A program made the position numbers and the translations under genes. The notes beneath the pieces are model-generated. The model was not told where the DNA came from and did not search any database. It worked only from the letters and a program-made list of their open reading frames with translations. Positions 62,598 through 64,000 of a DNA stretch of 64,000 nt are shown here, piece after piece. Source of the DNA: Escherichia coli. GTDB lineage: Bacteria > Pseudomonadota > Gammaproteobacteria > Enterobacterales > Enterobacteriaceae. The DNA lies in NCBI RefSeq assembly GCF_003018255.1, contig NZ_CP027440.1. One strand, given 5' to 3'. Numbering within the stretch: position 1 is the stretch's first letter; the number at the start of each line of letters is the position of its first letter.

Positions 62598-62752
62598 GAT
62601 TATCCTAAAGTTACACACATTTGCTGTGTAAAACGAGGGGTTTTCCGCAGGCAGGAGAGCAAAATGCCACGCTCTGTTCGTTGATAAAAGGCCGCATAGC
62701 GGCCTTTTTCCTTTCTTTACAATACATCAACATCTTGAGTATTGGGTAATTC

Positions 62753-63229
<477 letters not shown>

Positions 63230-63475
63230 TTGTTATACCTCTTGAATATTCCTGATGGGGCAAGTCTTCACCCACCCCGGCTGTTCGGCCTGCCCGGCAT
63301 AACTCCTCACCGGGACCAGAAGCAAAAAAATACCGACCCGGGTACAAGTCCCAGGTCAGCTACAATTCACATTTTGATAGTCATTTTACCCTGAAGTTCC
63401 CGAAGGGTCATCGTTTACTTTATAGGGCGTTGCGCCGTAGTATGACGGCTCGATTCCAGGTTGTTAGCGCGAGAT

Positions 63476-64000
63476 TATGCGATTTTCCAGATTTATCATC
63501 GGATTGACCAGCTGTATAGCGTTCAGTGTTCAGGCCGCAAATGTTGATGAGTACATTACTCAACTCCCCGCTGGTGCCAACCTTGCCCTGATGGTGCAAA
63601 AAGTCGGCGCGTCGGCCCCCGCTATTGATTACCACAGTCAGCAGATGGCGCTGCCCGCCAGTACGCAGAAAGTGATTACTGCACTGGCGGCGTTGATTCA
63701 ACTCGGCCCCGATTTTCGTTTTACCACGACGCTTGAAACCAAAGGCAATGTGGAAAACGGCGTACTTAAGGGTGACTTAGTGGCGCGATTTGGTGCCGAT
63801 CCGACGTTAAGACGTCAGGATATTCGCAATATGGTCGCGACTTTGAAAAAATCTGGCGTCAACCAAATCGATGGCAATGTGTTGATAGATACCTCCATTT
63901 TCGCCAGCCACGATAAAGCCCCCGGCTGGCCATGGAATGACATGACACAATGCTTTAGCGCTCCGCCTGCCGCCGCCATAGTTGACCGCAACTGTTTCTC
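63476..64000 (+). CDS. dacB: D-alanyl-D-alanine carboxypeptidase/endopeptidase (PBP4); 5' part only, continues past window end
   Basis: ATG at 63476 opens MRFSRFIIGLTSCIAFSVQA (signal peptide), frame open to the window edge. Confidence 0.85.

Follow-up and report, generated by a model that had tools for sequence, protein, structure and literature searches.

The spacer between the divergently oriented genes greA and dacB of Escherichia coli raises the question of whether its minus strand carries the control region known from K-12, in which premature termination in the greA leader yields the small RNA GraL, and, if so, which part of the spacer is the terminator. In E. coli, GreA is the principal factor that counters backtracking and safeguards transcription fidelity, and control of its level matters given that role. 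We addressed the question at the end of a 64,000-nucleotide stretch of E. coli DNA (the window), whose last 2.5 kb contains, in order, rlmE (minus strand), yhbY (plus), greA (minus) and the start of dacB (plus). The genes flanking the spacer, which carry the names greA and dacB in RefSeq on identical E. coli DNA, are as follows:

62753..63229, minus strand: greA coding sequence (158 amino acids, transcription elongation factor GreA), from the open reading frame and the RefSeq annotation on identical DNA
63477..64000, plus strand: 5' part of dacB (PBP4), continuing past the end of the window, from its translation and the RefSeq annotation on identical DNA

The dacB start codon is the ATG at 63477 on the plus strand (translation MRFSRFIIGLTSCIAFSVQA...), and the spacer occupies 63230..63476, a length of 247 bp shared with the MG1655 and FDAARGOS_536 genomes. 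An earlier note on this DNA correctly described a spacer between greA on the minus strand and dacB on the plus strand, as the reading frames, translations and RefSeq names all confirm; its end coordinate (63475) and length (246 bp) were each one base short. The RefSeq records of MG1655 and FDAARGOS_536 contain no feature within the spacer. The region is nearly universal in the species: a 501-base query across the spacer found a match in 5425 of 5426 complete E. coli genomes, with at least 99% identity in 5414.

We are highly confident that the minus strand of the spacer is the known E. coli greA leader and control region, whose early terminator makes GraL. GraL has already been described by experiment (Potrykus et al., 2010, PMC2836576; Dylewski et al., 2019, PMC6829880) and forms a curated Rfam family. 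Directly upstream of greA and on the same strand, the window matches the full length of this Rfam model at about twice its gathering score (127.5 bits against 60, E = 2e-24). The features of the match and of the terminator within it are the following:

63325..63446, minus strand: match to Rfam RF01769, 'Enterobacteria greA leader' (127.5 bits, model positions 1-124 of 124)
63332..63360, minus strand: GraL intrinsic terminator hairpin, with an 11-bp stem (GCUGACCUGGG / CCCGGGUCGGU) and a 7-nt loop, from the terminator scan, folding, covariation and the Rfam structure line
63320..63331, minus strand: U-rich tract A-U7-G-C-U2 of the GraL terminator, the zone of multiple published 3' ends, from the sequence and PMC2836576

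The terminator scan reported the hairpin on the minus strand at 63360..63332 as a stem of 11 pairs, seven of them GC, with a 7-nt loop and the tail ATTTTTTTGC. Potrykus et al. (2010) described the terminator of the greA leader as 'an 11 bp stem' followed by AU7GCU2 (PMC2836576); the 11-bp stem in the window and the A-U7-GCUU that follows it agree with this description exactly. A 61-nt minus-strand segment containing the hairpin (63382..63322) folds to -20.2 kcal/mol, compared with -11.0 +/- 2.5 kcal/mol for shuffled sequences (z = -3.69, with none of 200 shuffles as good). The expectation of a terminator-like structure upstream of greA is therefore correct for 63360..63332, and so is the suggestion that premature termination in the greA leader gives rise to GraL, given the Rfam match and a terminator and promoters identical to those of K-12. 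The place where the earlier note proposed to look was wrong. The range to be folded, 63230..63330 on the minus strand, misses the hairpin at 63332..63360 and could for this reason have led to a false refutation of the GraL idea: its fold energy (-33.7 kcal/mol) is no signal beyond that of shuffles (-29.6 +/- 3.5 kcal/mol, z = -1.15), 25 of 200 dinucleotide shuffles being as good.

Upstream of the terminator are overlapping sigma70 and sigmaE promoter motifs directed towards greA (63411..63373), each at the expected spacing and predicted from these motifs to be active:

63383..63411, minus strand: greA P1, sigma70 promoter with -35 ATGACC (63411..63406), a 17-nt spacer and -10 TAAAAT (63388..63383), from the promoter scan
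63373..63400, minus strand: greA P2, sigmaE-type promoter with GGAACTT (63400..63394), a 16-nt spacer and TCAAA (63377..63373), from the consensus match
63320..63378, minus strand: GraL small RNA, from the P1 or P2 start to 3' ends spread over 63330..63320, from inferred starts and published ends

P1, which scored 9 of 12 matches in the promoter scan, is sigma70-dependent in K-12 (PMC2836576). For P2, the sigmaE consensus GGAACTT-N16-TCNAA, as quoted in PMC2836576, has a single exact match in the window, at 63400..63373. The published transcripts from P1 and P2 are initiated with ApU and ApA, respectively, at starts 11 bp apart (PMC2836576). Combining the promoter hexamers, these dinucleotides and the published offset, we infer that P1 starts at the A at 63378 and P2 at the A at 63367 or 63366 (+/- 1 nt); the window has AU at 63378/63377 and AA at 63367/63366. 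GraL would then be 49-59 nt long from P1 and 37-47 nt long from P2, the same ranges as reported by Dylewski et al. (2019, PMC6829880).

The closest known system is thus the K-12 GraL/greA leader itself (PMC2836576, PMC6829880; RF01769), at the same locus, on the same strand and upstream of the same gene. The spacer differs from that of K-12 MG1655 at two bases only, 63257 and 63308; since the promoters and terminator are identical base for base, the K-12 experiments apply directly, and it is from those experiments on identical sequence that GraL RNAs are predicted here.

We examined the terminator comparatively at related loci, collected from species-representative genomes by a DNA-pattern scan with a block of the promoter region. 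This gave at least 120 loci, a sample conditioned on conservation of the promoter block because the search pattern was placed there. The listed loci come from Enterobacteriaceae, Erwiniaceae, Yersiniaceae, Pectobacteriaceae and Hafnia, and at every one with a readable gene start the element lies upstream of greA. For 114 distinct Enterobacterales sequences among the matches listed, aligned with MAFFT from the P1 start onward (alignment A1), the 11 terminator pairs form in 91.6% of cells, and nine of the 11 show double changes, on both sides of the pair. As a control, sliding the partners by 1-3 columns on the same alignment left only 19-56% of cells paired. Of 112 leaders among the matches listed, 101 have a U-rich tract after the hairpin. 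Potrykus et al. had stated that the terminator stem is conserved as a structure (PMC2836576), and the covariation reproduces that statement in a much larger sample.

Three of the sampled loci depart from the usual layout. The greA leader of Tenebrionibacter intestinalis is 387 nt long, compared with the usual length of about 223 nt. Its first terminator-like hairpin lacks a U-tract, and about 140 nt of inserted sequence separates it from a second hairpin that is complete and has a U-tract, which suggests an insertion or duplication event within the GraL terminator. The leader of Dickeya undicola, at 192 nt, has a deletion relative to that of Dickeya oryzae. In Enterobacter sp. EA-1, the greA frame leaves the conserved N-terminus after 11 residues, through a frameshift or an assembly error.

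The published papers are the source for the transcripts, the two-thirds termination, the sigma dependence, the autoregulation and the trans effects, and the present analysis supplies the sequence anatomy on which they can be placed. In K-12, northern blots, in vitro transcription and transcript-release assays demonstrated GraL. Both promoters are strong there, and about two thirds of the RNAs stop within the leader and are set free as GraL; termination is spread over about 10 positions and, in vitro, is not affected by Gre factors (PMC2836576). In vivo, fusions containing the terminator are about 3-fold de-repressed in the absence of GreA, and the GraL sequence (the part before the hairpin together with the hairpin) is both necessary and sufficient for autoregulation by GreA, which must be catalytically active (PMC6829880). 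This autoregulation is seen in vivo only and is absent in a purified system, from which an accessory factor has been inferred; Hfq, the Nus factors and sigmaE have been excluded as that factor (PMC6829880). A role of GraL in trans is based on overexpression and on one proposed target, nudE (PMC2836576, PMC6829880).

Projected onto the window, these data would have the overlapping strong promoters P1 (start near 63378) and P2 (start near 63367) driving transcription towards greA. The RNA would fold into the 11-bp GC-rich hairpin (63360..63332) 18-19 nt after the P1 start, followed by A-U7-GCUU, where RNA polymerase would stop imprecisely, at some ten neighbouring positions. About two thirds of the transcripts would end there as GraL of 37-59 nt, and one third would continue through a structured leader of 90 nt (63319..63230) into greA, so that the terminator would set greA output. 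The same terminator would be the element by which GreA represses greA in vivo, a process requiring catalytically active GreA and a further factor, and the released GraL may also act in trans.

The best surviving alternative is that the terminator does no more than damp two very strong promoters constitutively, with GraL as a functionless by-product. Three reports are in keeping with it: termination efficiency is constant through growth, the 2010 study found no direct base-pairing target of GraL, and GraL overproduction altered neither greA-lacZ activity nor the level of GreA (all PMC2836576). A constitutive damper, however, is hard to reconcile with the de-repression of terminator-containing fusions in a greA deletion or with the finding that GraL sequences are necessary and sufficient for the autoregulation, and a functionless GraL is at odds with its reported fitness effects and candidate target nudE. 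The unpaired 5' segment of GraL, AUCAAAAUG.AAAA, is also strongly conserved, an argument tempered by its overlap with the P2 -10 and start region. Altogether we regard this alternative as improbable and retain the reading of a terminator through which GreA acts on its own gene.

As far as SreA is described in Dylewski et al. (PMC6829880), this arrangement resembles 5'-UTR-derived small RNAs that are formed by premature intrinsic termination and have a second role in trans, such as the Listeria riboswitch RNA SreA, where likewise a leader terminator gives a stable short RNA and read-through gives the mRNA. Unlike the SreA-type RNAs as presented there, GraL has no evident ligand-binding aptamer or antiterminator, and it is the product of its own gene that enhances termination.

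What the window adds to the published system is the exact coordinates of the elements and a corrected position for the terminator. We also obtained three minor leads, none of which alters the picture of the greA/GraL system: a hairpin in the read-through leader (H3, below), a reading of the 5' half of RF01769 as promoter DNA, and a likely dacB promoter back-to-back with P1.

The second and third of these leads bear on the idea that the leader is a switchable attenuator or riboswitch, in which an upstream antiterminator competes with the terminator. 'A clear antiterminator structure' was reported computationally for greA leaders (Naville and Gautheret, 2010), and the RF01769 model contains three helices 5' of the terminator. 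Over half of the model, however, positions 1 to about 68 (63446..63379), lies upstream of the inferred P1 start and so would be absent from the transcripts of both promoters. In the P1 transcript, only 18-19 nt precede the terminator stem; both the minimum-free-energy fold and the centroid of this RNA are the terminator hairpin, which dominates the ensemble, and we found no competing alternative structure in the fold or ensemble of this transcript. The conserved blocks in the 5' half of the model coincide with promoter hexamers on both strands, and in its 'GUCAU...AUGAC' helix the free arm varies (on the dacB strand, ATGAC becomes ATGGC, ATTGC or ATTGT) with no compensating change. In addition, GreA enhances termination and does not relieve it (Dylewski et al., PMC6829880), which fits neither an attenuator nor a riboswitch. 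A switch of this kind is very improbable, and the computationally proposed antiterminator is unlikely to exist in real greA transcripts. Because of the uncompensated changes in the GUCAU arm and the overlap with promoter hexamers, the 5' half of RF01769 appears to be conserved bidirectional promoter DNA and not an RNA structure.

The promoter directed away from greA in this conserved DNA would be that of dacB:

63414..63443, plus strand: putative dacB sigma70 promoter, with -35 TTTACT (63414..63419), an 18-nt spacer and -10 TAGTAT (63438..63443), from conservation

Of 118 distinct Enterobacterales sequences among the matches listed, 116 retain TAGTAT, and 116 likewise retain the 18-nt distance between TTTACT and TAGTAT, although the sequence between them varies; the -35 block was fixed by the search pattern, whereas the -10 element and the spacing were free. 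TTTACT-N18-TAGTAT is on this evidence a probable sigma70 promoter of dacB, from which transcripts would start near 63450. The putative -35 element of this promoter (63414..63419) and that of greA P1 (63406..63411) lie on opposite strands only 2 bp apart, within the invariant block GGGTCATCGTTTACTTT. The arrangement is that of back-to-back divergent sigma70 promoters with a short shared control region, with the difference that the dacB promoter is here deduced from conservation. To call the spacer a divergent control region, as had been proposed, is reasonable with regard to this probable promoter; against it, dacB transcripts were not seen in the conditions of Potrykus et al. (PMC2836576).

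Downstream of the terminator, transcripts that read through enter the remaining leader. Here lies the GC-rich string that the earlier note had singled out as potential stems close to the greA start (cccaccccggctgttcggcctgcccgg, plus strand, 63270..63296), and the minus-strand RNA of this string can indeed form stems. The minus-strand fold of 63230..63330 consists of three hairpins, H1 (63316..63292), H2 (63290..63279) and H3 (63278..63257); the 5' arm of H3 covers part of the string and H1 and H2 cover the rest. The leader thus contains the following elements:

63279..63316, minus strand: predicted hairpins H2 (63290..63279) and H1 (63316..63292), right after the terminator, from the minimum-free-energy fold
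63257..63278, minus strand: hairpin H3 of the read-through leader, with 5' arm 63278..63270, loop GAAG 63269..63266 and 3' arm 63265..63257, from folds and alignment A4
63227..63256, minus strand: conserved translation-initiation block AUCAGGAAUAUUCAAGAGGUAUAACAAAUG, with a CAGGA box at about -23, the Shine-Dalgarno sequence AGAGG and the AUG, from leader comparison

The two differences from MG1655, at 63257 and 63308, fall in the predicted H3 and H1, respectively, of this read-through leader, and both times a standard pair is kept (G-C versus G-U at 63278/63257, and G-U versus A-U at 63308/63299).

Between genera the sequence of the read-through leader diverges fast, yet a hairpin stays at a fixed place in it. 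An alignment-free RNAfold survey of 47 distinct Enterobacteriaceae leaders with the anchor motif, among the matches listed, found a hairpin just before the CAGGA box: the stem at the H3 position is 6-11 bp long in 40 of the 47, and it lies 3-5 nt from the CAGGA box in 40 of the 47. The survey contained 22 different 5'-arm hexamers, with arm pairs such as GGGGUGGGU/ACUUGCCCC, GGAGCAG/CUGCUCC, GGAACGGG/UCCGUUCC and UCAGCAC/GUGCUGA. Conservation was not visible in a MAFFT alignment of 48 Enterobacteriaceae read-through leaders among the matches listed (alignment A2), for which RNAalifold gave no consensus structure and in which the E. coli H1, H2 and H3 pairs were 59.7% paired, as against 61.8% when slid by -1. 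For H3, the lack of signal is attributable to one-base register slips in the MAFFT alignment. We therefore built a covariance model of H3 from 10 equal-length sequences and aligned its 53 matches, 49 of them distinct (alignment A4). On A4 the H3 pairs form in 95.4% of cells, against 11-62% in slid controls; seven of seven pairs are changed on both sides, and there are 46 compensatory cells. Since A4 is fitted to the structure, the variety of arm sequences seen in the alignment-free survey is the more independent line of evidence. Conservation of H1 and H2 was not established: on A2 their pairs form in 56-70% of cells, which does not exceed the slid control. H1 is missing in three shortened leaders of the Enterobacter cloacae group (203-204 nt), where it must be dispensable.

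Judged from this comparison, H3 is a hairpin conserved immediately before the greA ribosome-binding site and not a terminator; neither of the two GraL papers (PMC2836576, PMC6829880) was found to mention it. It would not be needed for the published autoregulation of transcriptional fusions, since P1P2+T fusions without the downstream leader behave as the full region does (PMC2836576). One tentative reading, possible but doubtful, is that the read-through leader carries a second control element that sets greA mRNA stability or translation. In Enterobacteriaceae this element would be H3, which stands 3-5 nt before the nearly invariant CAGGA-AAGAGGUAUAAC block; in Yersiniaceae, Erwiniaceae and Pectobacteriaceae a conserved GUCAGGAUGAC hairpin is found instead. 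H3 might act on the stability or processing of the mRNA, or govern how accessible the ribosome-binding site is. The 'P3/P4' 5' ends of Potrykus et al., primer-extension bands that the authors considered post-transcriptional (PMC2836576), may also arise from processing or protection of the RNA at H3. Such a second layer would have been invisible in the published work because transcriptional fusions were used.

The families with the alternative hairpin show a distinctive layout. In Yersinia, Serratia, Pectobacterium, Dickeya, Erwinia and Pantoea, the place of H3 is taken by a hairpin of conserved sequence, (C/G)GUCAGGAUGAC(G), which precedes the greA ATG by about 40-50 nt and a second CAGGA by about 20 nt. 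The resulting pair of GGA motifs has the look of CsrA/RsmA sites, and the GUCAGGAUGAC hairpin could be a protein-binding site in the non-Enterobacteriaceae families.

For E. coli, the corresponding proposal is that H3 and the CAGGA box of the post-terminator leader form a CsrA-type binding site for control of greA translation. A GGA at -21..-26 (about -23) is present in most of 112 leaders among the matches listed, and in 48 Enterobacteriaceae leaders among them AAGAGGTATAAC is invariant and CAGGA nearly so. The second GGA, in the loop of the GUCAGGAUGAC hairpin, is found in 43 of 61 non-Enterobacteriaceae leaders but in none of 50 Enterobacteriaceae leaders (among the matches listed). The leader in the window has a single GGA near the ribosome-binding site, at -23, and none in the Shine-Dalgarno sequence, the H3 loop or any other hairpin loop. 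Experimentally, greA is marked 'No' in the E. coli CsrA CLIP-seq and in three other lists of CsrA targets (PMC5694010, Supplementary Data 2), and in a csrA mutant its translation, RNA level, translation efficiency and stability show no significant change (Potts et al., 2017, PMC5694010). Among the papers searched, none connects CsrA with greA. The CLIP-seq and csrA-mutant data contradict CsrA control of greA in E. coli, and the CsrA reading of H3 and the CAGGA box is extremely improbable.

The GC-rich stems of the earlier note are real and foldable, and one of them (H3) is evolutionarily conserved, but that they are the premature terminator yielding GraL is almost certainly wrong: they lie 24-60 nt downstream of the GraL terminator, no U-tract follows H1, H2 or H3 (AUCAGGAAUAUUCAAGAGG follows H3), the terminator scan did not report the stems at 63257..63316, the fold of 63230..63330 is within the shuffle range, 3' ends there would mean RNAs of about 100-120 nt from P1 as opposed to the published 37-59 nt, and the published terminator sequence AU7GCU2 sits at 63331..63320.

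Coding interpretations of the spacer were rejected. A potential leader peptide, the AUG-UGA at 63372..63367, would have no Shine-Dalgarno sequence and a 5' leader of 6 nt in the P1 transcript; the P2 start is downstream of it, and the frame is not kept in other genera. Small open reading frames at 63195..63347 (minus), 63233..63325 (minus) and 63224..63394 (plus) overlap hairpin arms with compensatory changes, which places the constraint at the level of RNA and not of protein.

At the other end of greA, Rfam matches to STnc420, STnc540 and STnc320 at 62678..62730 scored below gathering and correspond to the yhbY/greA terminator hairpin. This is a perfect 10-bp hairpin, AAAAGGCCGC-ATA-GCGGCCTTTT, at 62686..62708, flanked on both sides by A/T runs, which lies between the convergent genes yhbY and greA and looks like an intrinsic terminator shared by the two in both directions.
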